Source: Evtepia sp.
GTDB lineage: Bacteria; Bacillota; Clostridia; Oscillospirales; Oscillospiraceae
Direction: 5' to 3'
NCBI GenBank assembly: GCA_020025735.1
Contig: JAHHRP010000001.1
Span: 1-58,788 of the forward strand
DNA: 58,788 bases
In this document: positions 12,079 to 26,712 of the stretch, piece by piece
Layout of the letters: each line of letters starts with the position of its first letter
Numbering within the stretch: the stretch's first letter is position 1
The notes under the pieces: model-generated
What the model was told of the DNA's origin: nothing
Database searches by the model: none
The model's input: only the letters and a program-made list of their open reading frames with translations
Translations under genes and position numbers: made by a program

Positions 12079-12134
12079 GGAGCCTCTCTCCTTCTATTTT
12101 TTGTGTCTGGGTGCTTCTTGATCTTCCGAACCAC

Positions 12135-12181
12135 CCATGTCATCTTGTGTTTTATATACACCACGCACACACTATATTGTG
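12135..12181 (-). promoter_or_regulatory. Tandem NrdR boxes upstream of nrdD
   Basis: CACAATATAGTGTGTG (minus, 12166-12181) plus a weaker box at 12135-12150, ~31-32 bp apart, typical of NrdR; a third match ACACAATACATAGTAC at ~12287-12302. Confidence 0.65.
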
Positions 12182-12203
12182 CTTTTTCTGTATTTCATTC
12201 CCA

Positions 12204-12233
12204 ATGATAGCACTGGGAATATCCTCCCGTCAA
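12204..12233 (-). promoter_or_regulatory. sigma-A promoter of nrdD
   Basis: Minus strand TTGACG-18 bp-TATCAT with extended TG. Confidence 0.6.
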
Positions 12234-12408
12234 TAGCCGTTTTAAAAATTATTGCACAAAATTCAGGGGCAGGTCTGTAACTTGGGTACTATGTATTGTG
12301 TTCTGCGTTCTGCCTTCTCTTCTAAAGCCCTTGCAGGGCAAGGCATTCTCCTCACGCAAGGTCTTTTCTGCCCTGTTCCACCGGCCATATTCCTCCCTCT
12401 CTGCACTG

Positions 12409-12891
12409 TCATGGCATGTCCGGAAAATAGTACTGCACATGCAAATGGCAAGGCAAGATGGCTTCGATCAGTTCTTGGATCTGAATGATATCCGCAGGCG
12501 GTGTCACAATCCCCGGAAAGATGACTTTCACTTGCAACGGATCACCCGTTTCTTCTACCTGTGCAGGGATTCCACACCCGCGCAGAGTATCATTCATGGC
12601 AGCCAGTGTCGCATTGTTGTTTCGAATCCGAAGCAGCGCAGCCGCAGTCTGGCGCAGGCTTTCTGGGTCTTCCTGGCCCACCTGTCGTCCCAACAGATCC
12701 AGCACCTCCTGCAATCCTTCCTCTTGTGCCGTCCAAAGGTTCATCTCCCGCTGGATATGCGTTAGTTCCTGTTCCACCTGATCCATGGCTGCCCCTTCGC
12801 TTTTAAGCTCTCCCCACTGAAAACTTCCCTCCCAACGGTAAACTCCCAGCGGGGTCAAAAGGTCTCTTAAACTCTGTCCATGCCCCATCAC
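12409..12891 (-). CDS. Baseplate wedge protein (XkdU/YmfQ/DUF2313-like)
   Basis: Position after baseplate J; C-terminal IEAILPCHL motif typical of this family. Confidence 0.7.
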   Translation of the reverse strand: MMGHGQSLRDLLTPLGVYRWEGSFQWGELKSEGAAMDQVEQELTHIQREMNLWTAQEEGLQEVLDLLGRQVGQEDPESLRQTAAALLRIRNNNATLAAMNDTLRGCGIPAQVEETGDPLQVKVIFPGIVTPPADIIQIQELIEAILPCHLHVQYYFPDMP

Positions 12892-13943
12892 ATTTCCTCC
12901 ACTGACACGCCCCCCAACACAGGCAGCTGGTTTTCCTTTACGATCACATCGTTCACTGGCCCATCAATGCGGTAATTTGCCACACCAGGGACCTGATGAA
13001 TGCGCTGCGCGATTTCCACCAGCAGCAGATTTCTGCCCAGCATCGTCCCATCAAACCAAGTTTCCATCGCCTGCTTCACTCGTTCGATGACCACTGCCGG
13101 CAGCACTCCTGGCTCAGCCTGCACCGACAAGATTAGCTGAACTGCCACAGGTTCCGGTCCCTTAACAGATAAATCCACCGCAATCTCCCGCTTGGTTTCC
13201 AAATCCTCTAGTACCGTATTCACCAACGTCCGATTGGGCAGACCAGTAGCACTGGCAATGATCACATCTACCGTACCCATCCCACGTGGTTTTGGTATCA
13301 CTTTCACTGCCGCCACTCCTGGTATTGCCAGCGCCTCTTGTGCATAGTAGGCTTTGTTGGTTCCATTGGGAATGTTCCGGTATGTGTCCAGGATTCGCAG
13401 CCGCAGTTCTTCATCCTCTTCTCTTCCCCGTCCCCCAGTAAAGGGGACCGGATTGGTGCAGTCAGACACTCCTGCTGGTGCTACGGCCATGGTCCGCACA
13501 ACCCCCGCTGGGACATTGCCGCCTAGCCCTGGTTCCACTGCTTGGGCTGGGACATCCACGGACAGTTCACCTGCCAGAATGATCGCTTCCCTAGTTGTCT
13601 CAAAGGCTCCACCGCCTGCTGTCATACATACGCTTCCCACAGGTATGGGCAGATTCTCGTTCGCCGCAGATCGGAGAGAGAACCGAAGTTTTCCCTCTGC
13701 CCGTCGACCTGCTATCCGAGTCACCCCTCGTAAGAAGCCATGTTTCTCTAGTTCTTCCCCGGTAGCTGTTTGTGGAAAACACTGCCGCCGGGTCCAGGCA
13801 TTCTCCTCATACAGGCCATAGATCTGCGCTGCCAACGCATATAACCGCACTGCCATCTCACTAGATTCATCTGGGGCAATGCCAGTCTCCAGCACGACCC
13901 GATCCATCATTTCCCGATAAATTTCCTCTACCGTTTTTTTCAT
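12888..13943 (-). CDS. Baseplate J/gp47 family protein (XkdT-like)
   Basis: FPQTATGEELEKHG..RGVTR, AVEPGLGGN, GGRGREEDEELRLRI, PRGMGTVDV; ATG 13943 after GGAG. Confidence 0.9.
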   Translation of the reverse strand: MKKTVEEIYREMMDRVVLETGIAPDESSEMAVRLYALAAQIYGLYEENAWTRRQCFPQTATGEELEKHGFLRGVTRIAGRRAEGKLRFSLRSAANENLPIPVGSVCMTAGGGAFETTREAIILAGELSVDVPAQAVEPGLGGNVPAGVVRTMAVAPAGVSDCTNPVPFTGGRGREEDEELRLRILDTYRNIPNGTNKAYYAQEALAIPGVAAVKVIPKPRGMGTVDVIIASATGLPNRTLVNTVLEDLETKREIAVDLSVKGPEPVAVQLILSVQAEPGVLPAVVIERVKQAMETWFDGTMLGRNLLLVEIAQRIHQVPGVANYRIDGPVNDVIVKENQLPVLGGVSVEEM

Positions 13944-13959
13944 CTTCACCGCTCCCTTC

Positions 13960-14301
13960 TCACAGAGGGACAGACGCCACCAGGCTCTCTCCCCGCCAAC
14001 GCAAGGCAACATCTAACCGCTCAGCCGCCTCATTCCAGACGGCCCCTTCTACCTGCAACTCTTTCTCGCCGGCCAATGCCTCCGCAGCGTAGCTGGCTCC
14101 CATCGCTCCTCGGCTGGAGGGTTTTTCACGCATCAGAAGATGTAATCTGCTGCCTAATTGGGGCAGCAGCGGAAAACTGCCCCGCCGGACTGAAAGGAGA
14201 AAGAGGACCCGCTCCAGGACCCCCTCCACTCCATCACTGGAAGCAAAGCCTCCTTTTCCATCGAGGCAGTAATCCCCCTCTCGCAGATGGGTTACACTCA
14301 T
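13960..14301 (-). CDS. Baseplate/sheath initiator protein (gp25/gp46/XkdS-like)
   Basis: LSVRRGSFPLLPQLGSRL motif; ATGA overlap with spike gene; position. Confidence 0.75.
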   Translation of the reverse strand: MSVTHLREGDYCLDGKGGFASSDGVEGVLERVLFLLSVRRGSFPLLPQLGSRLHLLMREKPSSRGAMGASYAAEALAGEKELQVEGAVWNEAAERLDVALRWRGESLVASVPL

Positions 14302-14666
14302 TTCCCCACCTCCAGTCCATTCACGTTCAGGCTCCCGGTGATCTCCACGGGTCCTTTCAAATGGATCTTTCCGTCTCTGCTCAAGCGCAGTTCCACATCT
14401 GGAGATACGGACAGCCACACCTCATTGGTGGAAGACGCCATTGGCGCCCCCACCACACAGGGTGTTCCCTCTGGGCCACTCTTCACCACCAACACCGTCT
14501 CTCCCCGTGCAGGGGTCCAATGATAGCCTCCCGGCAGGCAAACGGTCACATTTCGCCGTTCCCCTGCCAGCGCAACTCCCATATCCACTCCAGACAAAGT
14601 AACCTGACCCAGCTCTGCTGGAGGTTCCTTTAGAATCTCTTCTCCTTTACCTCTTGCCATCCACAT
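14298..14666 (-). CDS. Short baseplate spike protein (gp45/gpV/XkdR-like)
   Basis: PGGYHWTP..GETVLV OB-fold-like segment and C-terminal beta-strand repeats (IHLKGPVEITGSLNVNG). Confidence 0.7.
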   Translation of the reverse strand: MWMARGKGEEILKEPPAELGQVTLSGVDMGVALAGERRNVTVCLPGGYHWTPARGETVLVVKSGPEGTPCVVGAPMASSTNEVWLSVSPDVELRLSRDGKIHLKGPVEITGSLNVNGLEVGK

Positions 14667-14682: not shown

Positions 14683-15636
14683 TCACAGAACTGCCTGAGG
14701 CGTACCCAGGATCAATCTTGTCTCATAACCGCTTTCCCCCAAGGTCACCCGACTCTCCCGAACGCGATACAGACCATTGCCGCTCCATCCTGCCCTGGTC
14801 AGCCGCACGAGATCCCCTGGCCAAGCAGCAAAGGGCAGTGCTACGGTCACTTCCACTTCCAGCAGATCTGCTGCCGAACGATCCAACTGGAACCTAGCCT
14901 GATACCGTCTTGCCTGAAACCCAGTGTTTTTTGGCAGCAGGATCACCCGGCTGCACTGACCTCCCCGGCGCTGGAAGTCGCTGTTCACTTCTGTCTGGCG
15001 TGTCCATCCGGTTACATCTTTCACTGTCACCTGCGACAAGACCCCATAGCGTTTATCTCGCCGAACCACCCGTGTCACAGGTGCATCCATGTCCAGTTCT
15101 ATTGGGTCTGCTGTGGGCCAGGGATGCAGCGCCAGTTTACCTTCTCTGGTGAAGCGGGGGGTTACGCCACCGTGGTACCGTGCAAAATCGTACAGCACCT
15201 TCCAGCAGCTGCTTCCTGAGGACACAGAAAATCCCCATACCGCTGGCAGAAAAACCCGCCGTTCCAGACCAATCCCAAAGGGTGTGACATACCGCCGCAA
15301 GATTTCCTCTAATGTGGCCTGACCATAATCTGCTGCCTCAGCCTGGTTGTCCAAGAGCAGTGCCTGAAGGCCCCGGCCGGTGATTTCTGCCATACATCCT
15401 TCCTGGGACCACTGGCACTGGCACTCATCTATCACGCCAAGAAACTGCAATTTTCCTTTCTGTTTTACCTGTACACGCACACCATTGGCCAGTTGATCCT
15501 CTTTGCCTGCCGACCAGAGGAATTTGACCCAAAAGCAGTCACAAGGGGAGCCAAGGCCATAGTCCAGCTGCCAGGCCACAGGTGTTGGAAGGAAGTATTC
15601 CCTTCCGTCATAACAAATGAGTTTCCACTCTATCAT
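14683..15636 (-). CDS. Baseplate hub protein (XkdQ/gp44-like)
   Basis: FLGVIDE...ITGRGLQALLLDNQA; C-terminal PGDLVRL...YRVRESRVTL; position after the LysM gene. Confidence 0.75.
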   Translation of the reverse strand: MIEWKLICYDGREYFLPTPVAWQLDYGLGSPCDCFWVKFLWSAGKEDQLANGVRVQVKQKGKLQFLGVIDECQCQWSQEGCMAEITGRGLQALLLDNQAEAADYGQATLEEILRRYVTPFGIGLERRVFLPAVWGFSVSSGSSCWKVLYDFARYHGGVTPRFTREGKLALHPWPTADPIELDMDAPVTRVVRRDKRYGVLSQVTVKDVTGWTRQTEVNSDFQRRGGQCSRVILLPKNTGFQARRYQARFQLDRSAADLLEVEVTVALPFAAWPGDLVRLTRAGWSGNGLYRVRESRVTLGESGYETRLILGTPQAVL

Positions 15637-15640: not shown

Positions 15641-16231
15641 TCACCCCACTCTCAGCCGCAGTCCTGCCTGGATCACATTCGGATTTTTGATCTGGGGATT
15701 CCATACCAGAAGTTCTCCCAATGTGGTTCCATATTTCTGGGCGATTCCCCACAAGGTTTCTCCTGTCACCACTGTGTGGTATACCGCTCCTGCTGGAGGC
15801 TTTGGCAAGGCAGGGGCTGGGCCACTTCCTCCCCCTGTATTGGTCTGTTTCTTTCTGGTTGTCAGCGTATCCTGATACTTATCATAGTCCTCCCAAAAGG
15901 TAAAGGTATAGCGCACATAGTCCTTCCGTGGCTCTTGGGCCAGGGATAATGCCACGAAATACACGCTAGCGCTCTGCCACACTGGATGGAACAATGCACC
16001 TGGTCCGTCGTCATAAAAGACCGTAGCCAGTTTCTTAAAATCCTCATAGGCTGATGGGCCAAAGAACTCACCTTCCCCTCGCATGACGCGCCGTCCCAGG
16101 CCCAAGTCCTGCATAGCGTATCGGCCGAAAGGCACTTTATGTACTGCCACTTTCCGCTCATATTCGATGGAGTAGGTCCTGGGATTATGGGGCCAGATAA
16201 AGCTCTTATACCGCATGGGACTCAGTTCCAC
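15641..16231 (-). CDS. Tail tube initiator with C-terminal LysM (XkdP-like)
   Basis: LysM HTVVTGETLWGIAQKYGTTLGELLVWNPQIKNPNVIQAG; N-terminal phage tail domain; GGAGG RBS. Confidence 0.85.
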   Translation of the reverse strand: MELSPMRYKSFIWPHNPRTYSIEYERKVAVHKVPFGRYAMQDLGLGRRVMRGEGEFFGPSAYEDFKKLATVFYDDGPGALFHPVWQSASVYFVALSLAQEPRKDYVRYTFTFWEDYDKYQDTLTTRKKQTNTGGGSGPAPALPKPPAGAVYHTVVTGETLWGIAQKYGTTLGELLVWNPQIKNPNVIQAGLRLRVG

Positions 16232-16251: not shown

Positions 16252-16755
16252 TCAGTAGAGGGAAAACCCTCCGTCGTACCGGCGGGCATCCCGCTGTACT
16301 GCGCGATCCAGCGCTTCCCAGTCCTGATTTTTTTCTCCTGTTGTTGACTCCACAGTCAGCACAGTGGGAAGCGGCGTACCGCTGTGTAACGCTGTGCGGG
16401 ACAAACGGGTTGCGTGACCTAAGGCTTCATATAGCTGACTTGGCGTCATGTTGCTGGCTTGTCCAGCTGTCCAGTCCAGGGGGACAGGAGAGAATTTTTG
16501 CTGTGCTTTCATTCCTAGTCCATGGGGGGCAGCCATCCTATCATCTGTGCCAGCTACTTCCTGGTCCATTTCTCCTTGCGCTGCAACTGTCGTTCCATCT
16601 AGCGCCACAGATCTAGCAGAAGCGGCATCTGTGGCGAGAGGCATCTTTTCCTCTGCCCGTTTTTTCCGGCCAAATACAAACCCCCGCCGTCCTTTTTGGC
16701 GAGGCAGGGATTCCTCCGTTTCTTCGTCCAGGATCGCTTCCAAATAGTCGATCAC
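16252..16755 (-). CDS. Putative very short tape-measure protein (167 aa)
   Basis: Occupies the TMP slot between chaperone and LysM genes; Ala/Thr-rich; GTGA coupling; positional call only. Confidence 0.45.
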   Translation of the reverse strand: MIDYLEAILDEETEESLPRQKGRRGFVFGRKKRAEEKMPLATDAASARSVALDGTTVAAQGEMDQEVAGTDDRMAAPHGLGMKAQQKFSPVPLDWTAGQASNMTPSQLYEALGHATRLSRTALHSGTPLPTVLTVESTTGEKNQDWEALDRAVQRDARRYDGGFSLY

Positions 16756-17381
16756 GGTTTCTCCCCCTTCTTCATCCGCTCAAAGCGCGACCAGTCAAAG
16801 GCAGGGTTTTCTTCCTGGGTGATTGTTCCGGTTTCCTGACCACATACTGGGCACCGCTCTTTCTCTGCCTCTGCTCGACAGACAGGGCACAGTCTGTCAA
16901 GCTCTTCTTCCTCATCCAGCAGCAGGTTTACCGCGCACCACAGGTAGTCCTCCTCCGTCATATTTCTGGCTCTTTTTTCCGTGGGCAAAGCGCCAAATTC
17001 CCGCAGGACCCGCCAGCGCAAGCGTTGCCAGGGCAGTTTTTTCAACCGTTCCTTCAGCTGGGAGATCTGCACAGGCTGTCTCTCCTGCCGATATTTCGCG
17101 GTCCACTGTCGGGCCATCTGCTCTACTTTGGGTCCTGATAGCTGTTTCAGCGCAGCTTCTCCTGAAGGGTATACTCGTTTGCCTCGTCGCCGCAAGGCGC
17201 GAGCTGTTAGGCAGGCGTTGTCCCAGAGGGCATGTGTTTCCTCATCGGCATCGCCTGCCAACGCGCGGGCCTCCTCCCGAGCCAGCAGCAGTTCCCAGGG
17301 CGGAAGGTTTTCCAACTGGCCTTTTGGTCTTTGCCATGGGGGACAGATTTGCCACCATTTTCCCAATTTTCTCACTCTCAT
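16752..17381 (-). CDS. Putative tail assembly chaperone with C-terminal CPVC-x8-CPVC motif
   Basis: Follows the tube gene with ATGA overlap; helical composition; GALPTE...MTEEDYLW resembles the T-chaperone segment. Confidence 0.55.
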   Translation of the reverse strand: MRVRKLGKWWQICPPWQRPKGQLENLPPWELLLAREEARALAGDADEETHALWDNACLTARALRRRGKRVYPSGEAALKQLSGPKVEQMARQWTAKYRQERQPVQISQLKERLKKLPWQRLRWRVLREFGALPTEKRARNMTEEDYLWCAVNLLLDEEEELDRLCPVCRAEAEKERCPVCGQETGTITQEENPAFDWSRFERMKKGEKP

Positions 17382-17767
17382 GCTGCGGTTTCAATCCGTC
17401 TGCTTGCCACCACTGTGACCTTTTCCATCACCGACGCGCCCAAGGTTCCACTCTCCCCGATTTTACTCCACTGGCAGCCGCTGTAAATCACCCGTCGGTC
17501 AGGTTTACAGATGACCAGGCTGAAATTTTCCAGGCTATAGAAGTCGATTCCATCGGCAAGGGCCTCATCGGTCGCATAGATTCTGGTCAGTTCCAGCACA
17601 TGTTTACTTTGTCCTGGGAGCGTTGCCACGGGTTCTTTTTCTCCAAAGGCTTCGATGGTGGTGCTGCTCTTTGTGCTTTGGACAGTATAGCTCTGTACCA
17701 CTGCCACTTTTTTCCCGTTCACTTCCAGATAGATGTCACTACTGGTTGGGATTAAAATTGCTGCCAT
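17378..17767 (-). CDS. Tail tube protein (129 aa)
   Basis: Directly after the sheath gene; beta-rich; DIYLEVNGKKVAVVQS...IYSGCQW; ATG 17767 after AAGGAG. Confidence 0.75.
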   Translation of the reverse strand: MAAILIPTSSDIYLEVNGKKVAVVQSYTVQSTKSSTTIEAFGEKEPVATLPGQSKHVLELTRIYATDEALADGIDFYSLENFSLVICKPDRRVIYSGCQWSKIGESGTLGASVMEKVTVVASRRIETAA

Positions 17768-17780
17768 TGTCACACTCCTT

Positions 17781-18827
17781 TTACACGGTGATCTGGGCAC
17801 TCAGCCAGATCTGATTGAGACCCTGCGCTACGTTGAAGGAAAAGGTCACCAGACAGACGGTGGGTCTGTCCTCCAATCCCTGAACAACCACATCTCCATA
17901 GCCGGTAATGATTTCTGCGGCCAATTTTCTTTCCAACTCCAAAATCACCTGGGAGCGCACAGCACCTCTGGTCTGTGCTGTGTTTTTGGCCCGTGGGAAT
18001 CGTGCCCGCAGGGCATCTCGAATACTGGGGATGACATCGTCCACCACCAGGATCGTTTCCAACTCCCGCCATGTGCTGTCGGGGGCCGATCCCGTTTTGG
18101 TTCTGGTTGTCACACCTCGAATGACGATACACCGTCCACCTGATAATTCCATTGGTGTCACACCGCCCTGAATCAGGGCATCCAGTTCTTCTTCGGTGTA
18201 TCGTGCGGTCAAGGCAGATATCCCCATCAGAGCCACGCCGCCCAGTGGGAGCGCGGGATCTGCCTGCCCACAGATAGCGCCTGCCACCGCCGCTGCAACC
18301 AGCGCGCCGCCCTCCTCAGAGGATACACTGGGCGCTGTCAAAACCATCCGCTCGCTGTTGAGTCCTTCCGCGTGGGTCACCAGTTGGGTAACCGTCTCAT
18401 TCCGGCCACCGGGAACCACGGCGATGCGTTCTCTTCTTGCCAAGGCGTCGGCAGCGACCTGATCTCTCAGCGCCTGCTGGGTCTGCAAATCCTCACTGTC
18501 GCAGACAATCACCCGCACATTTTCCTGCTGCCCCAGCAGAGCAAAGGCGCCAGCATAATTTCCATTTTCCCCCACAGGCACAGCCAGCACCCTGGCAGCG
18601 CCGTTGGCCAAGAGAACCTTTACCATTTTTGCCATTGTGTCGTCCTGCCCAAATATCTCGACAGCTTCCCGCCAATTCCCCAGGGAATAGAGGGTATCCG
18701 CTGTCCCAGTCTTACTTTTTGCAGCCACTGCCGCCCATCCCCTCCGACCAGCGGAGGTCACCACAGCGGAGGCTTCGTAAACCGAATATACTCCTGGCCG
18801 CTCATGGCTGGTCACCACATTACTCAC
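17781..18827 (-). CDS. Contractile tail sheath protein (short, 348 aa)
   Basis: N-terminal RPGVY; LIQGGVTP...IRGVTT; ILVVDDV..IR sheath C-terminal motifs. Confidence 0.9.
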   Translation of the reverse strand: MSNVVTSHERPGVYSVYEASAVVTSAGRRGWAAVAAKSKTGTADTLYSLGNWREAVEIFGQDDTMAKMVKVLLANGAARVLAVPVGENGNYAGAFALLGQQENVRVIVCDSEDLQTQQALRDQVAADALARRERIAVVPGGRNETVTQLVTHAEGLNSERMVLTAPSVSSEEGGALVAAAVAGAICGQADPALPLGGVALMGISALTARYTEEELDALIQGGVTPMELSGGRCIVIRGVTTRTKTGSAPDSTWRELETILVVDDVIPSIRDALRARFPRAKNTAQTRGAVRSQVILELERKLAAEIITGYGDVVVQGLEDRPTVCLVTFSFNVAQGLNQIWLSAQITV

Positions 18828-19324
18828 AGTACGATCTCTCCTTTCACCTCAAAGCCCAGGATCTCTCCTGATTCCTCTGTCACAGCTACCAGCGTTCCCC
18901 GGCAGACCGCCTGGAGTTTCCCGCGGAACATTCCGCAGTTCCGGTCAAAGTCCGTCTCTCCCATGGCCCATTTCTCTACGGCGAATCCAGCAGGTCCTGC
19001 CTGAAGCAAAGCCGCAGCCACCTTATCCAGCAGGAGGCGACAGCCCTCCTCCCCTGCGGATCTTGGGCTGTACAGGGTCAGAAGGAACTTAACGGTCACC
19101 CGCTGCCCGTAGCGTTCGGTCCATTTTCTGGCGATATCGTCGTAGCTTTGTCCCAAGTAGTTTTGAAATCCTGCTGCGCTGGCTTCGACTTCTTTGATTT
19201 GAACCACAGCCACAGGTCCTTTCTGTTCCTGCCGATGTTCCATAGGCCAAGCTGTCATGGCGGGGATTCCTGCTGCTGTCAAATAATCTGTCATAGCCTG
19301 TCGGAGTGTTGTGAGGGTTGTCAC
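18824..19324 (-). CDS. Tail terminator / head-tail joining protein (166 aa)
   Basis: GTG at 19324 overlapping the previous stop, GAGGAGG RBS; position before the sheath. Confidence 0.6.
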   Translation of the reverse strand: MTTLTTLRQAMTDYLTAAGIPAMTAWPMEHRQEQKGPVAVVQIKEVEASAAGFQNYLGQSYDDIARKWTERYGQRVTVKFLLTLYSPRSAGEEGCRLLLDKVAAALLQAGPAGFAVEKWAMGETDFDRNCGMFRGKLQAVCRGTLVAVTEESGEILGFEVKGEIVL

Positions 19325-19659
19325 AAAGCATCCTCCTCTCTTCTCTGGAGCACGACTCGCCAATAGATTCTTTCCTGTCCTGCCTCTACGGGGCGGACAT
19401 TGATGACATTGTATTGTTCTTTTCCGGCCTTTACGGTCTGTTCTTCCGGTCCTGTAAGGAAAGGAATTGCGCTCTGAGCGAGACACAGGACCTGATCCCA
19501 GCGCTGATTTCCTATTTGCGAAGGCAGCCACTGGCACTGTCGATTCAGGACTGGGCGGAGTATCGCTCTACCCCGTCCGATCTCTGTTTCATTTCGGCAC
19601 AGGATCACCTCCTGGCCATACCTGGCGGCAATGGCCTCAAAACTGCTGGCAAAGCTCAT
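19321..19659 (-). CDS. Head closure (stopper) protein
   Basis: Second neck gene; RYGQEVIL N-terminus and beta-rich C-terminus; ATGA overlap. Confidence 0.55.
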   Translation of the reverse strand: MSFASSFEAIAARYGQEVILCRNETEIGRGRAILRPVLNRQCQWLPSQIGNQRWDQVLCLAQSAIPFLTGPEEQTVKAGKEQYNVINVRPVEAGQERIYWRVVLQRREEDAL

Positions 19660-20048
19660 CCCTGCACCTCCAAGAAAGCGAAGGCACCATCCTGCACATA
19701 GGGAGCCATCAAGGTCTCTGCCTGACTCTGGAGGCTTTTGGCGCAGGCATCACCTCCCTGATTTTGCTGGGCATGTACCGTGAGATCTCCGGCAGAAAAG
19801 GAGAGGGGGGAAGGGCTGCTTTGTTCCATGGCTCCGGTCATTCCTGCCAAAGCACTCCAAGCGCTGGCTACTACCATCAGGTCCCTGATATTCTCTTCCA
19901 GTACATCCTCCCGCAGGCGCTGACGCCAGCTGGTCAGGGCAGCAGCGCACAGGATGGAGAGGACTTCTGCCTCTCCATCTGTCAGCTGCCGACCAGCAAA
20001 ACACAGGGCGACCTCCACGATCTCCTGTTCCTGAATCATGCTGCTCAC
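19656..20048 (-). CDS. Head-tail adaptor protein
   Basis: Follows MCP; SFSAGDLTV and LMAPY motifs typical of gp6/gp15-like adaptors. Confidence 0.65.
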   Translation of the reverse strand: MSSMIQEQEIVEVALCFAGRQLTDGEAEVLSILCAAALTSWRQRLREDVLEENIRDLMVVASAWSALAGMTGAMEQSSPSPLSFSAGDLTVHAQQNQGGDACAKSLQSQAETLMAPYVQDGAFAFLEVQG

Positions 20049-21088
20049 CCCTTGACGGTGCCGATTTCCAGGACCTTGGATGCCTCCTGGAAGATTTTTG
20101 CAAAGCCGGAAATGGAGGTAATGGCAGCCCGCTCCAACTGGCGATCAATGAGCTTATCGTACTCTACCAGCACGTCGCTGCCGCGTACCATTTCCAGGGC
20201 ATAATTTTTGTCAAGCCCGATAATGGTCCCGGAGGGGACAGCGCTGCTTCTGAGCAGTGTTGCACCCATCGGTGTGACCAACTTCCCGGTACCCTGGAAG
20301 GTCAAGCCTGCGGTACCGTCCTGCATTTCCTTTAGTTTAAGGACCTGTGCCATTGCATCTCCTACCAGCAGGGTGTTCATGGCATAGGGGTCAAACTGGC
20401 TCCAAAAATCCACCAGTGCGTCATAGGTCAGGGTACCGGCGGTCCCAGTGATGGGGCTTGTACCCACGGTGTAAACCTTGGCTGCATTGCTGTTTCCGTC
20501 GCCATGCAAGAGGACATCAATGGCATCACTCACATGCATACGGTTAATGTAGGCACCGATCTGCCGCAGGGTAACGGAGAAGAGGTCCAAGCGCTGGAAT
20601 TGAATGGCTTCGTACGAAGCCACGAGCATCCGGCCGCGTTTGTGCAGCTGGACGAGATTTTCCTGGGCTTTGACTTGGGTTTCAGGGATAAGCGCACCTT
20701 CTGCCACCATTTTGAGGGATTTTTCATCTTCTGTGGGGGTAGAGGCGATGGAGCGGTAATCCATGCCTGAGATTCTAGTTTCTGCTGCGGTCATCATGGG
20801 CAGGATATTGCTTTCCTCCATCCCCTGGCGGACCGCTCTTGCGACATATTCTGGGAAGAGGACTGCCGACTCCCAGGTTGCGAAGAACTTAGAGACGACG
20901 TCAGAATCTGCGCCTTTCACTTTGATGTCAAAGCGCTTGAGCTGGCGCTGGAATGCGTCGAGGTTCTCCATTGGGGTCCCCTTGTATTGTTCCGAGGGGT
21001 CACACTGCTCCAGCACCTTAGTAAAGGAGCGACCAGACTCCCGATACATCCCCTTGTCGAGCTTCACCGTTTCAAACTGATATGCCAT
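20045..21088 (-). CDS. Major capsid protein (HK97-like fold, 347 aa)
   Basis: LFPEYV..AV, VAEGALIPE, LHKRGRMLVASYEAI, LLHGDG motifs; ATG 21088 after AAGGAG. Confidence 0.9.
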   Translation of the reverse strand: MAYQFETVKLDKGMYRESGRSFTKVLEQCDPSEQYKGTPMENLDAFQRQLKRFDIKVKGADSDVVSKFFATWESAVLFPEYVARAVRQGMEESNILPMMTAAETRISGMDYRSIASTPTEDEKSLKMVAEGALIPETQVKAQENLVQLHKRGRMLVASYEAIQFQRLDLFSVTLRQIGAYINRMHVSDAIDVLLHGDGNSNAAKVYTVGTSPITGTAGTLTYDALVDFWSQFDPYAMNTLLVGDAMAQVLKLKEMQDGTAGLTFQGTGKLVTPMGATLLRSSAVPSGTIIGLDKNYALEMVRGSDVLVEYDKLIDRQLERAAITSISGFAKIFQEASKVLEIGTVKG

Positions 21089-21114
21089 AGTTTCTGACTC
21101 CTTTCTTTCTGTTC

Positions 21115-21465
21115 TCAAAGGAACAGGCCCATGGTTTTGCTGTTGGTGTCCATCTGAACCACCAAGCAGACCCTACCTGTCTCACCGCTGCCGGCCAGAC
21201 GCAGGCCGCCGGTTCCGTCGGCCACCATCTGGTTCCAGCCCAGAGTGGGTGCGGTACCGCCAGTGTAGTTACACTTGACATATCCGCGAATCTGGACAGC
21301 AGCATGCTCCCCTCGTTTGTTAAGTACAAGTCCCACCGGAGCCGTACTAGCGGGTGCGTCTTTCACCGTGTCGTTTTCGCTCATTGCGGCAAAATTTCCT
21401 GCTGTGACTGCTCCTGCCTGGAATGTAACCACCAGGCTTTCCATTCCGTTAAATGCAACTGCCAT
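21115..21465 (-). CDS. Capsid decoration/cement protein (DUF2190-like)
   Basis: 116 aa, Gly/Ala/Val-rich, between protease and MCP; strong AGGAGG RBS. Confidence 0.65.
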   Translation of the reverse strand: MAVAFNGMESLVVTFQAGAVTAGNFAAMSENDTVKDAPASTAPVGLVLNKRGEHAAVQIRGYVKCNYTGGTAPTLGWNQMVADGTGGLRLAGSGETGRVCLVVQMDTNSKTMGLFL

Positions 21466-21497
21466 TGTTGAAGTTCCTCCTTTTTTATTCCTGTGGT

Positions 21498-22457
21498 TTA
21501 GATCACAAAGGATTTGTCATCCTCTGTCTGTCTATCTTCCTTCCCGCCATAGCGCAGCTGCACGGGCAATGCCATCCGCTTTTCCAGCTGCTTTTGGTAG
21601 CAGGCTTTCAGTTCTTCCAGTTCTTCTTCCTCCAGCTTATCGGCGATGGTTTGGAGGGTTTTTTCTTGTAATCCTGCCTGTGCCATCAAGCCCAAGCGCA
21701 CCGTTTCCTGGCGCAGATTGTCCAGGTATCGGCGGCCTGCGGCAGCTTGACGCTGTAACAGGCGCAGTTCATCCTGCCAGCTTCCTTCTCTATCCAGGCC
21801 AGCCAGGACCTGTGCCAGGTTTCCGTCCTTTCTTAGGCCTTTGACCACACCGGCTCTAGGCTGTGCAGGCACGGCAACGAAAGACCACTCAAAGGCATCG
21901 GTTGGCTCTGCCAGGCGAACGATGCAGCGTTTTCCTTCATAGAGTCTCCCCTTAACGTGGCTGCATGTAGAGCGATCGTGAATATCGTTGCCGCAGATAG
22001 AGCATACACAACCTTCCACCGCGCAGCTGACACTGACCTCTTTTTTGATTCCTCCTTGGATTTCTGCAATGAGTCCGGCGTTTTCCTCCGTCCGAAGCAT
22101 ATAGGCATATCCTTTTAGGTAACACCCCGGCTCACCGGCCTCACTCACCATTCCCTGCTCGTCCACAATCTCAGTGCGATAGATCCGCGCAGTCTGGTCC
22201 TTTGCGCTCCAACTGTGGTCAAAGATCCCGGTCTTTCCCACGAAAAGTTCGGCCAGTTTTTCCAGATCTTGTCGGCTGAAATATTCCTGATCTCGGTCTG
22301 TCTGGTTGTCACACAGCCGCACGGCGAAGGTATAGATCTCCTCTTCGGTCAAGCTGGTGCCGTTGAGACTGTTGATGGCTTCTAGTTCTCCTGCCACTGC
22401 TCCTGCCACCGGGTCATTCTGTCCCTGGGTCTGGGCTTCTTTGGTCACTGTCTGCAT
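21498..22457 (-). CDS. Prohead protease fused to a scaffold-like coiled coil
   Basis: DRD.EYF, GKTGIFDH, KKEVSVSC, EWSFVAVPAQPRA protease-like motifs; CSICG..C.H insert; charged helical C-terminus. Confidence 0.75.
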   Translation of the reverse strand: MQTVTKEAQTQGQNDPVAGAVAGELEAINSLNGTSLTEEEIYTFAVRLCDNQTDRDQEYFSRQDLEKLAELFVGKTGIFDHSWSAKDQTARIYRTEIVDEQGMVSEAGEPGCYLKGYAYMLRTEENAGLIAEIQGGIKKEVSVSCAVEGCVCSICGNDIHDRSTCSHVKGRLYEGKRCIVRLAEPTDAFEWSFVAVPAQPRAGVVKGLRKDGNLAQVLAGLDREGSWQDELRLLQRQAAAGRRYLDNLRQETVRLGLMAQAGLQEKTLQTIADKLEEEELEELKACYQKQLEKRMALPVQLRYGGKEDRQTEDDKSFVI

Positions 22458-23655
22458 GGCTTTCCTCCTTTTCTTCCTGGGTTTTTTTCTTATCTTCCTT
22501 TTTCAGGCTATCATTTGCCAACTGCTCTGCCTGTTGCCGGTAGAGGACCGCGCGGGCTTTTTCGACCTGATCCTGGAGATTAATTTCCTGCCAATCGACT
22601 TGAAAATCACAACTTTTCCCGTGCATTCTCAGCCACATCCTGCAAATTTTTTCCATCATAGGGGTTAGTGTCCGGCGCAATGCAGTAAGCTCACTGGTCA
22701 TGATATCTGCCTGCTGGCTGCTCATGCGTTCTGTGGAGGACCAATTAAGCCCCAGCAGGAAGGGTGGGATTCCGGTCTGGGAGATGAGCTGTTCCAAGAT
22801 CAGGCGTACAGGGGTTTGGCAGTCTGGAATGTCACATTCTGCTCCGATGACCTTAATTTCCACATCACCGACTGTAACGAAGTCTCTCACGGAGCCGTTT
22901 CTGGTGTTTTCCATGGCTTGGGACCAGCGTTTTGCGAGCAAGTTTCCTCGTTCCTGTACGCGGCGCTGATCCAGGCCATCTTCTGGTTTGTAGACAACAG
23001 CGAATCGGACATTGCCGGCGCGTTCCCAGTTATCCCCTAGGGTCTGATAAATTTTAAGCAGGATACTCGATAAGAAGGGCATCCCATGCAGGAGGGACTG
23101 GCCGTAGGGGTTCTCTGGGCTGGCGTGATAGGGGGTAAATAACAGCAGGTCCTGTCGAGGCAGGATCTCTGTGTGTCCATCTGGCTGTCGCAGGGCCAGG
23201 TGGAGTTCTAAGGGGGAGTCCCCTTCTTTCACTTCGATATCAGAGATATTTCCGCACAGGACGGCGGCGATTTCTCGTCCATCCCTGCTTGGCACAATTT
23301 CCCCCACAGCTCTGCCACAGGTGAGCAGGCAGTCCAGGTAGCTGTCCAAAAAGGATTGAATTCCTCTTTGATTCCAGCCGGTTGGAACGGTGCGCAGGAA
23401 GTGGTTGAGTTCTTCCTCCACGGCTTTGTCCTCGCACACAGCGGCTACCCCTCCAGCCAGACGCACCAATTTTAAGATTGCAGCGTCCACCACAGGAATC
23501 GCCTCCCGGATTGCGCGATACAGCGAGAACTCGGGCTGATGCAAGGGCACATACCCGTCGATCATTTGAAAGGGGTGTCGCTGTGCAGGTCTCATCTGGA
23601 TAGCGCCTGGTACTGTTTCTGTTGGTTGATGTTTTCTACCTTTCCAAAGTCCCAT
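22414..23655 (-). CDS. Phage portal protein
   Basis: Follows TerL; IPVVDAAI, PYGQSLL, TGIPPFLLG motifs. Confidence 0.85.
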   Translation of the reverse strand: MGLWKGRKHQPTETVPGAIQMRPAQRHPFQMIDGYVPLHQPEFSLYRAIREAIPVVDAAILKLVRLAGGVAAVCEDKAVEEELNHFLRTVPTGWNQRGIQSFLDSYLDCLLTCGRAVGEIVPSRDGREIAAVLCGNISDIEVKEGDSPLELHLALRQPDGHTEILPRQDLLLFTPYHASPENPYGQSLLHGMPFLSSILLKIYQTLGDNWERAGNVRFAVVYKPEDGLDQRRVQERGNLLAKRWSQAMENTRNGSVRDFVTVGDVEIKVIGAECDIPDCQTPVRLILEQLISQTGIPPFLLGLNWSSTERMSSQQADIMTSELTALRRTLTPMMEKICRMWLRMHGKSCDFQVDWQEINLQDQVEKARAVLYRQQAEQLANDSLKKEDKKKTQEEKEESHADSDQRSPDPGTE

Positions 23656-23676
23656 CTCATCCTCCTTCTGGTTGAT

Positions 23677-24933
23677 TTAGAGCCGCCTCTCCACATAGCC
23701 AGCAAAGAAGGGATCGTCCCCTTCTTCTGGTGCTGCCACCGTGGCCACGAAGTAGCGAATCTCGTCCATAGCGTGGTCAAACTCTTTTCGCACTTTATCC
23801 TTGTCGCCGGCGTTCAGGTCCCAGCAGTAGGCGCTGAATTCCCGAATGGCATCCTGGCATGGGGTGCAAATCACGATTTTCCCCGTTTTCAAGGCATCTG
23901 CCGTCAGCCGGATTCCTGAGAGCACGTCATTGTTTGCCTTTCTCACGTTCCATCCTTCTCGGCGCAGCACTTCCAGGAAGGAAGCCGCTGAGGGGTCTGC
24001 CACTACCGCCTCGATCTCATGACCTCCCGCCAGTTCCCGCAGCCGCTGGGCGTATTCCTGATCGGTCTGCTGCTGCCGGGCGAGTCTGGCATCGTAGTAA
24101 TACTCCCGCACCCGGTACCAGATGCCGTTGTATTTCCCCCAAAGCCCCATAGAGGTGGGGTTCAGGGTTCCGTAGTCGCAGGAGATAACCCATCGCTCTG
24201 CCTCTCCTACTGGGGGTGGTCTGACCATATTTTCGTCGAAAAAATCGTATACCAACCCTTCGGCTGCCGTCCATTCTCCCAAAACGAAGCGGCGATAGAA
24301 CGCCCCCTGAAAGGCTCTCTCGTAGCGCTGTCTAGTCTCTGGGGCCAGGGTGGGGTTATCCTCCATAAAGAAGCGCAGGTGCAGCAGATTTCTCTCTTCT
24401 GCTTTACAGATCCACTCTCTGTAAAACCAGTGGGCAGGTCCAGCTGGGTTGCAGGAGAACCAGAACTTAGCTCCTGTCACGGAGCACCGGGCACAGGCCT
24501 GTTCCACAAAGGATCTTGGCATCAGTGCCACCTCATCCAGCAGCACGCCAGCCAGGGTAATGCCTTGGATGAGTGCGGCACTGCCTTCGTCCTTACCGCC
24601 GAAGAGGAAGTAGGTGTTTTCCACGCCGGCATAGCGGACCTTGAGCCAATTTTTTGAAATTTTCTCTTCCCAGTCAAAGCCCAGCATCTCCAGCACAGGC
24701 AGCACACTATAAAGGAGGTTCCTCCGTACAGATTGTGTTGTTTTGCCGCATAATGCGAATTGTTGATGGCGGAAGCGCGTCATACTCCAAAGGATGAAGG
24801 ACAGGCCCAGGCACATGGTCTTTCCGCTTCTCACGGCGCCATCACAGACGATGGCATCTTTCTCCTTGTAAGGGGAGCCTCTGGTCCACCATCCAAGGAC
24901 CTGTTTTTGCTTGTCTGAAAAGCGCAGGCTCAT
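23677..24933 (-). CDS. Terminase large subunit (PBSX family)
   Basis: Walker A GAVRSGKT, Walker B VLLDEV, SCNP, nuclease DYG, DPSA, DHAMDEIRY. Confidence 0.95.
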   Translation of the reverse strand: MSLRFSDKQKQVLGWWTRGSPYKEKDAIVCDGAVRSGKTMCLGLSFILWSMTRFRHQQFALCGKTTQSVRRNLLYSVLPVLEMLGFDWEEKISKNWLKVRYAGVENTYFLFGGKDEGSAALIQGITLAGVLLDEVALMPRSFVEQACARCSVTGAKFWFSCNPAGPAHWFYREWICKAEERNLLHLRFFMEDNPTLAPETRQRYERAFQGAFYRRFVLGEWTAAEGLVYDFFDENMVRPPPVGEAERWVISCDYGTLNPTSMGLWGKYNGIWYRVREYYYDARLARQQQTDQEYAQRLRELAGGHEIEAVVADPSAASFLEVLRREGWNVRKANNDVLSGIRLTADALKTGKIVICTPCQDAIREFSAYCWDLNAGDKDKVRKEFDHAMDEIRYFVATVAAPEEGDDPFFAGYVERRL

Positions 24934-25244
24934 CGCTGACTGGTCATCTCCTGTTGGGTGGGAGGGCGATCCAGAGCCTCCAAGAAGGCGGCGGCGCCCT
25001 TTCCATCCTCCTTCATCTGATCCAATAGTTTTTCCAGCACAGCAGCTCGATCTGTGAGTTTCACTTCCACAGCACCGTTGCTGCTGCGTTTGAATTCTGT
25101 AAGGCAGCCTAAGTTTAGCTTATCAATCTCCTCCATTCTTTCTTCGCTGAGGTAGGCCAGTTTTACAGCGTCGTTGGCCGCGCCTGCGGCCAGGGACATC
25201 ATTTGTTCCAGCACACCTCGTCGGTCTACTTTTTTCTTTCCCAT
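24930..25244 (-). CDS. Putative terminase small subunit (104 aa)
   Basis: Upstream of terL with ATGA overlap; VEVKLTDRAAVLEKL resembles the TerS oligomerisation motif; GGAGG RBS. Confidence 0.7.
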   Translation of the reverse strand: MGKKKVDRRGVLEQMMSLAAGAANDAVKLAYLSEERMEEIDKLNLGCLTEFKRSSNGAVEVKLTDRAAVLEKLLDQMKEDGKGAAAFLEALDRPPTQQEMTSQR

Positions 25245-25369
25245 AAAAATCCCTCCTCACCCTACCTGGTAACACCCCTTCTACGGGGACGTTTTCGTAC
25301 ACGTTTTTAAAAAATTTTTTTATTTTTTTGAAAAATACGGAAAAAATCCTGTCTACGCACTTTTTTCTG

Positions 25370-25399
25370 GCATAAGGCAGCCAAGTTCTGTCCACACTA
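25370..25399 (+). promoter_or_regulatory. sigma-G (forespore) type promoter
   Basis: GCATA-18 bp-CACACTA matches the sigma-G consensus, upstream of the CBS-domain gene. Confidence 0.7.
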
Positions 25400-25439
25400 T
25401 GTGGTGCAAACTCCCGTCTTTTTCGGGGAGGGAAATGAG

Positions 25440-25880
25440 GTGATCGATCTGCAAATACAGCAGCTGATGAATCCCTGTGTGGTCTCAATTGATCCTGGGG
25501 AAAGTGCCGCTCTGGCAGCCCGTCTTCTTGCCCGGCACAATGTGGGGGCACTGCCGGTGTGTGATGCTTCGGGGACGCTTTTGGGTGTGGTAACCGACCG
25601 GGACATCATCCTTCGGTGTGTTGCTGCTGGGGAGGACCCTTCTCAGATTTCGGTCCGAGCCATCATGTCCCGGCATCCATCCGTGGTCTCTCCTGGGGAT
25701 GATCCACGGCAGGCAGTCCGACTGATGTCGGGGCAGCAGATCCGGCGGCTTCCAGTGGTGGATGATGAGGGCAAAGTCGTGGGGATGCTCTCTCTGGGGG
25801 ATCTGGCCAAGTGTGGCCGATGGGAGATGGAGGTCTCCCGGGCTTTGACTGACATTTCAGAAACCATCCGTCAGCCATAA
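25440..25880 (+). CDS. CBS-domain pair protein (YhcV-like)
   Basis: VGALPV..GVVTDRDI, IRRLPVV..GMLSLGDL; GTG 25440 after GGAGG (CTG 25449 is an alternative start). Confidence 0.9.
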   Translation: MIDLQIQQLMNPCVVSIDPGESAALAARLLARHNVGALPVCDASGTLLGVVTDRDIILRCVAAGEDPSQISVRAIMSRHPSVVSPGDDPRQAVRLMSGQQIRRLPVVDDEGKVVGMLSLGDLAKCGRWEMEVSRALTDISETIRQP

Positions 25881-25885
25881 ACAAG

Positions 25886-25930
25886 CCGCAAGGGGGCGGG
25901 AGGACGCACTGTCCTCCCGCCCCCTTGCGG
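25886..25930. terminator. Bidirectional terminator hairpin
   Basis: Perfect 20-bp stem CCGCAAGGGGGCGGGAGGAC with 5-nt loop between convergent genes. Confidence 0.8.
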
Positions 25931-25957
25931 TTGTATTCTAGCTGCTTGCCAGGAGAT

Positions 25958-26605
25958 TCATATATTTTCCACGAGGCTGCGGATTCGGCAAGCCTGTTCC
26001 CAACCTTCTCTGGCGTGTTCCCAGAACAGTTGCTGCAAGCAAGGATCAGAGGTACTTTCCGTGCCGGTGAGATAGGCAGCCATGGTAGCCTGTTCCTGGG
26101 CAAAGCGGCGGCGCAGGGTGCCTAAGTATGAGGTGATTGGGGGCAGCTTTTCGCTTTCCGGCCAATATCTTATTCCAGAGATAAGGAAGTAAGCTGCAGA
26201 GAGTTTTTTTGCCCGGCGCTTTTTTTCTCCAGCCAATCCTGCCAGCACTCTCCCGGGGGTCCCTCCTGCTCTGCGAGCCAGGGCCTGATATTCCCGGCAA
26301 TCCGTCAACTCTCTGCAAATGAGTTCTTGCAGCAGCGGCCCACACTCTAGGCAAGACTCTCCCAGCACGCCTGATGTTTGTGGAAAATCTCCGTGTGGAC
26401 GATGTTGTTTTTGTGCTGTTTTTTGGGCGGGCAGCAGCATCTGCTTGTCATCTTCACCGTCGAGATCCGTCTGTTCTTGGTTCTCCTCCCAGGTAATGGG
26501 ACAGCTGTCTGCATTTTCTGCCATTACTCGCTTCCACACCCGGGCAAAGATTTCTTTTTTGTCTTGTTCCTGTTGAGGAAGGGAATGTGTCAAGTGTTCT
26601 TCCAC
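25958..26605 (-). CDS. Ferritin-like/four-helix protein, probably spore-associated (215 aa)
   Basis: FARVWKRVM N-terminus; helical C-terminal domain with LSAAYFLISG; AGGAGG RBS; sigma-K-like promoter. Confidence 0.6.
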   Translation of the reverse strand: MEEHLTHSLPQQEQDKKEIFARVWKRVMAENADSCPITWEENQEQTDLDGEDDKQMLLPAQKTAQKQHRPHGDFPQTSGVLGESCLECGPLLQELICRELTDCREYQALARRAGGTPGRVLAGLAGEKKRRAKKLSAAYFLISGIRYWPESEKLPPITSYLGTLRRRFAQEQATMAAYLTGTESTSDPCLQQLFWEHAREGWEQACRIRSLVENI

Positions 26606-26631
26606 GGCAATTCCTCCTTTTGTTGTTTCTC

Positions 26632-26660
26632 TATTCTATGTTCTTACCTTTGTTTCTGTC
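26632..26660 (-). promoter_or_regulatory. sigma-K (mother cell) type promoter
   Basis: Minus strand GACA-16 bp-CATAGAATA matches AC-N16/17-CATANNNTA. Confidence 0.6.
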
Positions 26661-26712
26661 CTAGTGTGTGCGAGGTTCCCGGAAGTTTTTTCCACTGGAA
26701 GACGGAAGTATC

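Follow-up and report, generated by a model that had tools for sequence, protein, structure and literature searches.

A candidate miniature tape measure protein in a compact contractile-tail gene cluster of Oscillospiraceae

The classical rulers of phage tails are tape-measure proteins that form long helices, of about 800 residues in P2 and about 1300 in PBSX, where the tails measure about 135–200 nm. Here we describe a gene cluster in which this place is held by a protein of only 167 residues, as against the many hundreds in P2 and PBSX. The cluster lies in a 58,788-nucleotide (nt) stretch of DNA from Evtepia sp. (contig JAHHRP010000001.1, positions 1 to 58,788; hereafter the window, which denotes the whole stretch analysed), and the small protein, p167, is encoded on the minus strand at 16252..16755. 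On balance, we favour the reading that p167 is a miniature tape measure within a ~13-kb head and contractile-tail element that resembles a gene transfer agent (GTA) and is widespread in Oscillospiraceae-type Clostridia.

Several described systems share the position of p167. Like it, P2 gpT, PBSX XkdO, Mu gp42 and the corresponding R2 pyocin protein occupy the slot after the chaperone and before the initiator and hub, and the baseplate partners are held in common (LysM/initiator, gp44/gpD-like hub, spike, and gp25-like, J-like and I-like proteins). The tail genes of PBSX (xkdK, M, N, O, P, Q, R, S, T, U) stand in the same order as those of the window cluster, and the RcGTA tape measure also follows chaperone genes. 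PBSX, of about 28 kb, has a long tape measure, a tail of about 200 nm, and fibre and lysis genes. Like the window cluster, PBSX and FpGTA are chromosomal head-plus-tail clusters without replication genes; FpGTA, from Faecalibacterium, is described as podovirus-like with no visible tail (PMC12946183), whereas the window element spans about 13 kb and has a sheath gene and a miniature tape-measure slot. For P2, a structural account places the tape-measure gene upstream of the initiator and hub genes, models the C-terminal tape-measure helices at the spike as a three-helix bundle and gives gpT candidate transmembrane helices, of which p167 has none; the same account describes an initiator with a C-terminal LysM domain, as in the window, for extracellular contractile injection systems (bioRxiv 10.64898/2026.09.14.750843).

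The closest parallel in size, to which the first-pass annotation of the window had already pointed, is RcGTA, where the g11 tape measure is described as 113+83+20 residues, and as a trimer that fills five tube hexamers and one distal-tail hexamer of a 49-nm tail (PMC7296036). A very short tape measure with a C-terminal helix and a domesticated, streamlined phage-like particle are features that RcGTA, as described there, would share with the p167 system. Unlike the window element, RcGTA has a non-contractile, siphovirus-type tail, belongs to a proteobacterium and has a tape-measure helix of 113 residues, whereas p167 is encoded among sheath-bearing tail genes in Clostridia, is mostly disordered by prediction and shows no detectable sequence similarity to solved chains.

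The p167 open reading frame (ORF) is intact. Its GTG start (16755–16753) overlaps the TGA stop (16754–16752) of the upstream gene, which encodes a protein of 209 amino acids (aa), p209, in the tetranucleotide GTGA; its own stop, also TGA, lies at 16254–16252, and the GTG start of the LysM gene, preceded by a ribosome-binding site (AAGGAGG), follows 20 bases later. The 1147 nt from the end of the tube gene to the LysM start are wholly taken up by the 209-aa and 167-aa genes, with nothing else in the slot. An intact, translationally coupled 167-aa ORF ending in RRYDGGFSLY, in the tape-measure slot between a chaperone-like gene and a LysM (XkdP-like) gene, is what the first-pass annotation had called, and the overlap, the translation and the gene order bear it out. 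The cluster reads sheath, tube, chaperone, p167, LysM tube-initiator, hub, spike-position gene and wedge genes, an order that is collinear in all ten loci of other genera that were inspected.

The shortness of the slot is a property of the whole family. Related loci were collected with the tube protein as the query, 80 from species-representative genomes (176 relatives) and 57 from IMG/VR; the closest 80 of the 184 IMG/VR relatives by tube alignment added no distant ones, and some IMG/VR loci duplicate genome loci, such that 98 motif-bearing slot proteins correspond to 88 distinct sequences. The tube protein is 52–90% identical across the 137 fetched loci. In all 115 loci with both genes, which keep p167 in the tape-measure slot in the same order, the tube-to-LysM interval is 483–1532 nt (median 1073). 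The first-pass annotation had allowed that p167 could be a deletion remnant if orthologous clusters carried a long tape measure at this position; none of the 115 loci has room for one, and across these loci that account of it fails. With starts corrected, the slot protein has a median length of 193 aa (lower quartile 160, upper quartile 255, maximum 403) and does not exceed 300 aa in 110 of 113 loci, the few very small values being artefacts of incomplete sequence or of the boundary rule. By a profile of the last 45 residues, the motif RDARRYDGGFxLY forms the very C-terminus of the slot protein in 113 of 113 loci, and the comparison of length and C-terminal motif that had been proposed as a check accordingly gives a short protein with a terminal motif throughout. 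Three distant genomes, with tube identities of 36–54%, carry in order the tube gene, a chaperone-like ORF of ~100–120 aa, an ORF of 80–95 aa and the hub, and two of the three have a tube-initiator gene between the 80–95 aa ORF and the hub. In a distant AT-rich relative (L209, G008:C4; 31% G+C, 1.3-Mb genome), the expected tube-initiator position (7925–8396, 472 nt) holds no ORF of at least 70 aa under translation table 11, which may mean that the gene is absent or disrupted, or that a different genetic code applies in this genome. A genome of the window's own family (G174:C28:86677-87069) has a tube gene with one in-frame TGA.

Searches with p167 itself agree with this picture. A word-indexed search returned 127 homologues of 99–194 aa at E<=0.001, and an exhaustive profile search of 1.84 billion cluster representatives returned 1624 at E<=0.001, of which 553 pass E<=1e-10; the best 150 of the 1624 are 73–314 aa long and nearly all align end to end. 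No longer homologue appeared among proteins of 507–2000 aa, which is weak evidence because that search was word-indexed and lengths of 293–507 aa lay outside its range. The carrier genome (1.73 Mb in 161 contigs, 92.66% complete) contains one sheath gene and one p167 gene. Of the two tape-measure families tried against it, PF20155 has no match and PF10145 a best match of 16.2 bits on contig C112, which was rejected as a tape measure since it is a methyl-accepting chemoreceptor. A translated search (tblastn) of 50,697 phage records with the portal and hub proteins matched six and five records, respectively, mostly unannotated faecal 'Bacteriophage sp.' contigs, and so few matches leave no cultured phage relative with a long tape measure that could be used for comparison. 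At the level of search results, the literature yielded no description of the cluster, nor of any contractile tail with a miniature tape measure.

Within p167, three conserved pieces are separated by variable linkers rich in Ala, Gly, Glu, Arg and Pro. The first is an acidic N-terminal helix, MIDYLEAILDEE, with the family consensus M-(I/T)-D-Y-L-E-x-L-L-x-E-E; the second is a helix in the middle of the chain; and the third is the C-terminal segment, with the consensus L-D-R-A-V-Q-R-D-A-R-R-Y-D-G-G-F-x-L-Y, with R158 and R159 invariant and with conservation of 90% or more at R155, D156, Y160 and D161. AlphaFold2, with an alignment of 46 sequences, places helices at residues 4–13, 105–124 and 146–161, which are the same three pieces. 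Conserved ends of this kind are as would be expected of attachment sites.

The features of the cluster and their evidence are as follows.

18824..25244, minus strand: head and neck module (Pfam, PHROG)
24930–25244, minus strand: small terminase, weak match
17781..18827, minus strand: contractile tail sheath, 348 aa (PF04984, 49.5 bits; PF17482, 41 bits; phrog_279, E 6.8e-41)
17378..17800, minus strand: tail tube protein (phrog_27038, E 7.5e-65, alignment starting at residue 12)
16752..17381, minus strand: p209, predicted tail assembly chaperone, 209 aa (AlphaFold2 and VIA-align; weak match to phrog_25000, E 0.0053)
17037..17042, minus strand: run of six A (A6) in TTG AAA AAA CTG, at the junction of the chaperone domains
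16252..16755, minus strand: p167, protein of the tape-measure slot, 167 aa (ORF and translation)
15641..16231, minus strand: XkdP-like tube initiator with a C-terminal LysM domain (PF01476, E 3.8e-14)
14683..15636, minus strand: baseplate hub, XkdQ / Mu gp44-like (phrog_177, E 3.6e-45)
14298..14666, minus strand: small XkdR-like protein at the spike position (phrog_25991, E 1.3e-34, a PHROG of unknown function)
inside ORF 13960–14418, minus strand: gp25/gp46-like wedge gene, its start over-called in the ORF list
12888–14012, minus strand: Baseplate_J (PF04865, 167 bits)
12409–12891, minus strand: Mu gp48-like gene, last in the cluster

The gene directly upstream of p167 carries a second line of evidence. 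The AlphaFold2 model of p209 (pLDDT 85.7) matches, over residues 13–103, the tail assembly chaperone of HK97 (2ob9_B; Z 6.9, root-mean-square deviation 3.2 Å over 78 residues), which is the sole match with Z>=5 among 48,161 representative solved chains in VIA-align, with Bacillus yqbN (3klu) at Z 4.0. Foldseek returned nothing from the PDB at E<=0.001, which leaves VIA-align as the one source of the match, and a Z of 6.9 is below the level at which helical fold matches are safe by themselves. The protein is composed of a G-like N-terminal domain and a C-terminal CxxC...CxxC zinc ribbon ('T'-like) domain, which share one frame in the window. In many relatives, the N-domain forms an ORF of ~140 aa and the zinc ribbon lies in an overlapping -1 frame, with an A-run at each of the 14 two-frame junctions inspected (CTA AAA AAA G in nine, variants in five). 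A run of at least six A separates the chaperone domains in 42 of 42 two-frame loci vs 2 of 27 one-frame loci. Programmed -1 frameshifts of the G/GT type precede the tape-measure genes of tailed phages, and the two-frame relatives show the pattern of such a frameshift, here putative. The chaperone-like neighbour named in the first-pass annotation is supported by the fold match and by the A-run alike, and the model points to p209 as a tail assembly chaperone. Like lambda gpG/gpGT and HK97 gp10, it has the N-domain fold, a -1 frameshift pattern on an A-rich run in its relatives, and a gene directly upstream of the tape-measure position; unlike them, its frames are fused in the window and in 27 loci, its added domain is a zinc ribbon, and a chaperone goes undetected in 39 of 114 related loci. 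The occurrence of p167 in the tape-measure slot, together with the G/GT chaperone signature upstream, supports the tape-measure reading.

The A6 run of the window (TTG AAA AAA CTG) matches the position of the slippery CTA AAA AAA GCC in relatives. As the zinc-ribbon domain continues in frame, only the long form of the chaperone is encoded directly, whereas a -1 slip at the A6 run would append 41 residues before a stop and give the short form. Among 114 motif-bearing loci, 36 have the two-frame architecture, 27 the one-frame architecture of the window and 12 the N-domain only. Within the window's clade, one-frame and two-frame loci are intermixed on the sheath tree, which suggests that hard-wiring of the frameshift, or its re-creation, took place on more than one occasion. 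In the remaining 39 loci, where no chaperone is detected, a single ORF of ~186–403 aa fills the space between the tube stop and the LysM gene; 33 of these 39 ORFs have the motif F-(D/E/N)-x-x-(R/K)-F some 50 residues into the protein. Elsewhere this motif belongs to the zinc-ribbon ORF, some 15 residues before its C-terminus in 54 of 70 loci, and it is absent from the slot proteins of all 75 chaperone-bearing loci. The single ORF therefore looks like a fusion of the chaperone tail with the tape measure, as judged from the place of the motif. The no-chaperone loci include L042, L046-L050, L057, L060 and L063-L065, of the large Oscillibacter/Pelethomonas-type clade.

The genes around p167 make up a simple contractile tail module of the Mu / P2 / PBSX type, with sheath, tube and a minimal baseplate set. 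The cluster runs on the minus strand from 25244 down to 12409, about 13 kb, as delimited by the ORF list and by Pfam and PHROG scans; past its 12409 end lies an ORF (9751–12078) for an nrdD-like anaerobic ribonucleotide reductase, and past its 25244 end an unrelated 215-aa ORF and rny. In the contractile module, PF04984, PF17482, PF04865, PF01476 and PF07157 score above their cut-offs, and the second gp44-like domain, GP46 and Mu Gp48 score below; the matches to phrog_279, phrog_177, phrog_6 and phrog_521 are strong. No other sheath match occurs in the genome. The true start of the tube protein is probably the ATG at residue 12, where its PHROG alignment begins, for a product of ~129 aa. The tube initiator also matches PF07157 (DNA_circ_N; 28.8 bits, cut-off 21), phrog_184 and phrog_16855 (GpU-like), and its N-terminus resembles the Mu gp43 / GpU-like domain. 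The hub has weaker matches to PF22255 (18.9 bits, below cut-off) and to 1wru (Mu gp44), the latter a hint only at E 0.44. The role of the 14298..14666 product as the spike is putative and is suggested by gene order. The wedge genes (12409..14418) match PF10076 (22.2 bits) and PF07409 (17.3 bits), both below cut-off, and phrog_6 and phrog_521; the 152-aa gp25/gp46-like ORF overlaps its upstream neighbour by ~120 nt. The gp48-like last gene encodes 160 aa in the window vs ~190 aa in other genera, and some relatives have additional ORFs of 130–240 aa past it. The head module matches PF03237 (terminase large subunit N-terminus), phrog_30703 (portal, E 7.6e-152), phrog_3922 (major head protein, E 2e-121) and phrog_25177, and further includes a 319-aa protein at the scaffold/protease position, a 116-aa virion protein and three small neck proteins. 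The start of the 237-aa ORF at 18824–19537 is over-called; its PHROG alignment runs from residue 73, which corresponds to a product of ~164 aa.

Selection on these genes was assessed by the pairwise ratio of nonsynonymous to synonymous substitution (dN/dS; Nei-Gojobori, own script), with the other genes compared in ten of the p167 pairs. The ratio for p167 is 0.29–0.62 in 17 of 17 ortholog pairs, and 0.30–0.72 for its variable middle. It is 0.02–0.07 for the tube in nine of ten pairs (the tenth, at 0.31, has an over-called start), 0.01–0.09 for the capsid protein in all seven computable pairs, 0.08–0.26 for the sheath in nine computable pairs (the tenth pair being identical), 0.06–0.25 for the LysM protein, 0.05–0.34 for the hub and 0.04–0.34 for Baseplate_J. 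The low values of the structural genes indicate that the machine is maintained, and by the same comparison p167 is its fastest-evolving part, yet constrained. Decay, where it occurs, looks different. The closest relative by tube sequence (88%; L005:5422-9087) holds a decayed copy at the same site beside nrdD, in which a 530-aa chimera (portal N-terminus joined to sheath C-terminus), the tube, Baseplate_J and gp48-like genes are retained and the capsid, chaperone, p167, LysM, hub and spike-position genes are gone. With conserved termini, dN/dS below 1 and a constrained sheath, tube and capsid, the case made in the first-pass annotation for streamlining over decay holds, and that the slot is short by design is well supported by the comparison of sequences.

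As for how such a protein might act, we infer its anchoring, its ruler function and the resulting tail length from these features. The hub, the spike and the LysM tube-initiator would assemble first, and the C-terminal helix and RRYDGGFxLY tail of p167, probably a trimer, would then be anchored either within the hub or on the spike. The upstream chaperone, with its G-like and zinc-ribbon domains joined by a putative -1 frameshift in relatives and fused in the window, would hold p167 and recruit tube subunits. Tube and sheath would then polymerise up to the acidic N-terminal helix of p167, where the tail would be capped.

With only 167 residues in three short helices and flexible linkers, p167 would specify a tube a few rings long. 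The height of a tube ring is ~4 nm. At 0.1–0.15 nm per residue the tail would measure ~15–25 nm, and at most ~55 nm with the chain fully stretched: 0.15 nm per residue would give ~25 nm, or roughly six ~4-nm rings, and the ~0.1 nm per residue implied by RcGTA would give ~17 nm. To our knowledge, the smallest described myovirus tails are ~100 nm long, and all three estimates (~17, ~25 and ~55 nm) would fall far under that length. An extremely short contractile tail is a reasonable prediction. The first-pass annotation had arrived at 20–25 nm, an extrapolation at 0.15 nm per residue that presumes a mostly helical ruler, which the AlphaFold2 model, with its three short helices, does not show; of its interpretation, the slot position and the streamlining are supported, and the tail length stands as a prediction.

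The length of the slot protein is clade-specific on a tree of the sheath (93 rows, quick search, with SH-aLRT support only):

window's Evtepia/'Ruminiclostridium' clade: 132–186 aa
Lawsonibacter-type clade: 153–180 aa
Intestinimonas clade: 200–246 aa
Flavonifractor/Pseudoflavonifractor clade: 255–289 aa
large Oscillibacter/Pelethomonas clade: mostly 186–299 aa
basal pair: 85–90 aa

In the longest slot protein (403 aa; L055:3647-3944), an in-frame tandem repeat of 39 nt (13 codons) is present in 6.4 copies, and the same in-frame repeat is present in 2.4 copies in a 298-aa protein (L084:7770-7873). Two 13-residue units (26 residues) correspond arithmetically to about one tube ring at 0.15 nm per residue. 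Variation in tandem-repeat number is described as common in tape measures (PMC3271669), and by this analogy the slot protein appears to change its length in a tape-measure-like manner.

A number of observations weigh against p167 as a ruler. Length is poorly constrained: family members span 80 to 403 aa (about fivefold), and the slot proteins of four loci whose sheaths are nearly identical measure 211, 225, 298 and 403 aa; with such a spread, either tail length varies much or the protein is a slack linker and no strict ruler, and the twofold gaps between close relatives fit a slack linker as well as an evolving ruler. The p167 model is weak (mean pLDDT 60.8, pTM 0.26), without confident structure outside the helices, and only about 46 of the 167 residues are predicted helical, short of the long coiled coil by which tape measures are recognized, although a weak AlphaFold2 model of a flexible protein is not proof that p167 lacks a long helix. 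No family matches p167 in Pfam (E<=0.01), PHROGs or NCBIfam, and it therefore belongs to no named tape-measure family (PF10145, PF20155 and relatives); its family alignment has no match at E<=10 among profiles of solved structures, the ESM Atlas gave no usable match, and a search of the loci with residues 1–120 alone detects no relatives. Hydrophobic segments are lacking in all 46 aligned members (maximum 19-residue hydropathy window 1.02), which makes it unlikely that p167 forms a channel, as has been proposed for some tape measures. The domain scans, confined to the cluster, found no fibre or lysis gene in it, and a working particle would need such genes from elsewhere. To these points are added the decayed copy in the closest relative by tube sequence and the patchy distribution of the element described below. 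A complex prediction with three copies each of the spike-position protein and of p167 residues 120–167 scored 0.00 and, having no controls, counts neither way.

The most serious competitor, which we consider rather unlikely, is that p167 serves as a hub plug or as a tube-initiation or ejection protein that has kept the ancestral attachment ends, while tail length is set otherwise or only loosely. Most of the chain being predicted as disordered, the twofold differences in slot length between close relatives with nearly identical sheaths and the dN/dS of the middle region would all suit such a protein, as would the 39 loci without a detected chaperone, where the presence of the F-(D/E/N)-x-x-(R/K)-F motif in most of the single ORFs suggests that the parts are reshuffled freely. 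However, the chaperone is kept in 75 of 114 loci, and chaperones of this kind are known for tape-measure-dependent assembly; the conserved N-terminal and C-terminal helices provide the two defined ends that a ruler needs; and a change of length by 13-codon tandem repeats is typical of rulers. We also know of no ruler-independent length control for phage-type contractile tails.

p167 might instead have nothing to do with the tail lumen and serve, for example, as a regulator, a scaffold for assembly or a protein that binds DNA ends, which would be in keeping with its acidic, low-complexity composition and with its failure to match any family or fold. We regard such a role as improbable: all loci examined strictly keep p167 between chaperone and tube initiator, the p167 start is coupled to the chaperone stop, and the invariant aromatic C-terminal tail is typical of a docking peptide.

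A further possibility is that the functional ruler is a chaperone-p167 product made by recoding at the GTGA, with an effective length of ~250–380 residues. The cluster family appears, from its A-run junctions, to use recoding already, and the motif that marks the chaperone C-end in chaperone-bearing loci is found with the tape-measure C-terminus in one ORF in the no-chaperone loci. Yet no slippery sequence or conserved structure was seen at the GTGA junction, where no dedicated search was made, and the presence of a start codon, its ribosome-binding site and the conservation of the N-terminus as Met-(Ile/Thr)-Asp-Tyr-Leu point to independent initiation; even the fused forms, at 186–403 aa, are still very short. 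We hold recoding to be very improbable.

To the idea that the p167 gene is what a deletion has left of a long tape measure, in a prophage that is decaying and no longer functional, we give next to no credence: the domain scans of the cluster without fibre, lysis, integration or replication genes, the patchy distribution and the decayed copy beside nrdD in a sister genome would suit it, but the slot is short in 115 of 115 loci from several genera and in the three distant relatives, both ends of p167 are conserved with dN/dS below 1 in every pair, the neighbouring structural genes are strongly constrained, the ORF is intact and translationally coupled, and true decay, as in L005, takes the form of multi-gene deletions and not of one neat in-frame shortening.

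Taking p167 as a miniature tape measure, the element that contains it can be compared with gene transfer agents. Domain scans of the 20 cluster products detected no fibre, lysis, integrase or replication domain, and the cluster, viewed with its flanks (12079–12408 and 25245–26757), shows no recognisable gene for a tail fibre, a holin/endolysin, an integrase, a repressor or replication. As judged by its gene content, this chromosomal head-tail cluster, in which the scans detect no genes for replication, integration or lysis, resembles a gene transfer agent, with a defective prophage or a satellite-like element as alternatives. The carriers are labelled Evtepia, Intestinimonas, Flavonifractor, Pseudoflavonifractor, Oscillibacter, Lawsonibacter, Pelethomonas, 'Ruminiclostridium' and unnamed Oscillospiraceae. 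The tube protein occurs in 15 of 301 sampled genomes of the order, with one match per carrier: 7 of 18 in the same family, 2 of 18, 2 of 13 and 3 of 18 in other families, and none in the other 26. Of 72 loci with sufficient flanking sequence, 16 have nrdD after the cluster, most of them in the closest clade. By both counts, the element is widespread but patchy. One locus labelled 'uncultured Mycoplasmatota bacterium' (L012, CAVCXN010000195.1) has the cluster, with a tube protein 86% identical to that of the window, and groups with Clostridia loci on the sheath tree; its label or binning is probably wrong.

GTA-like packaging of DNA in Oscillospiraceae (Onthomonas, Pelethomonas) has been reported by two studies from 2026, from sequencing of gut virus-like particles, in accounts that, where they treat packaging, leave the genes unassigned (PMC12946183; bioRxiv 10.64898/2026.07.08.737213). 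For Pelethomonas, GTA activity is suspected, with no strong GTA cluster and only a capsid-forming-satellite-like element mentioned in that description (bioRxiv 10.64898/2026.07.08.737213). Two Candidatus Pelethomonas loci (L057 and L073) carry the cluster described here. Since packaging has been reported without its genes, the cluster offers a concrete candidate for one of the major routes by which genes are exchanged within the gut microbiome. We propose, tentatively and with less confidence than we place in p167 as a tape measure, that the element encodes a contractile injection machine shorter than any other known, in which a head filled with DNA sits on a sheathed tail of ~3–6 rings whose length is set by a mostly flexible ruler of 80–400 residues that evolves by 13-residue repeats, and that it provides the genes behind the GTA-like packaging of Oscillospiraceae.

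Contractile tails are thought to need a long sheath, both for the storage of energy and for reach across the cell envelope. If the reading of p167 as a miniature tape measure is true, a maintained, sheath-bearing family with a ruler of 80–400 residues would test how small a working contractile machine can be. Its members, with slot proteins of ~85, 160, 190, 265 and 400 residues, would provide a natural series for the ruler rule in contractile tails, in an element that is common in abundant gut Clostridia.

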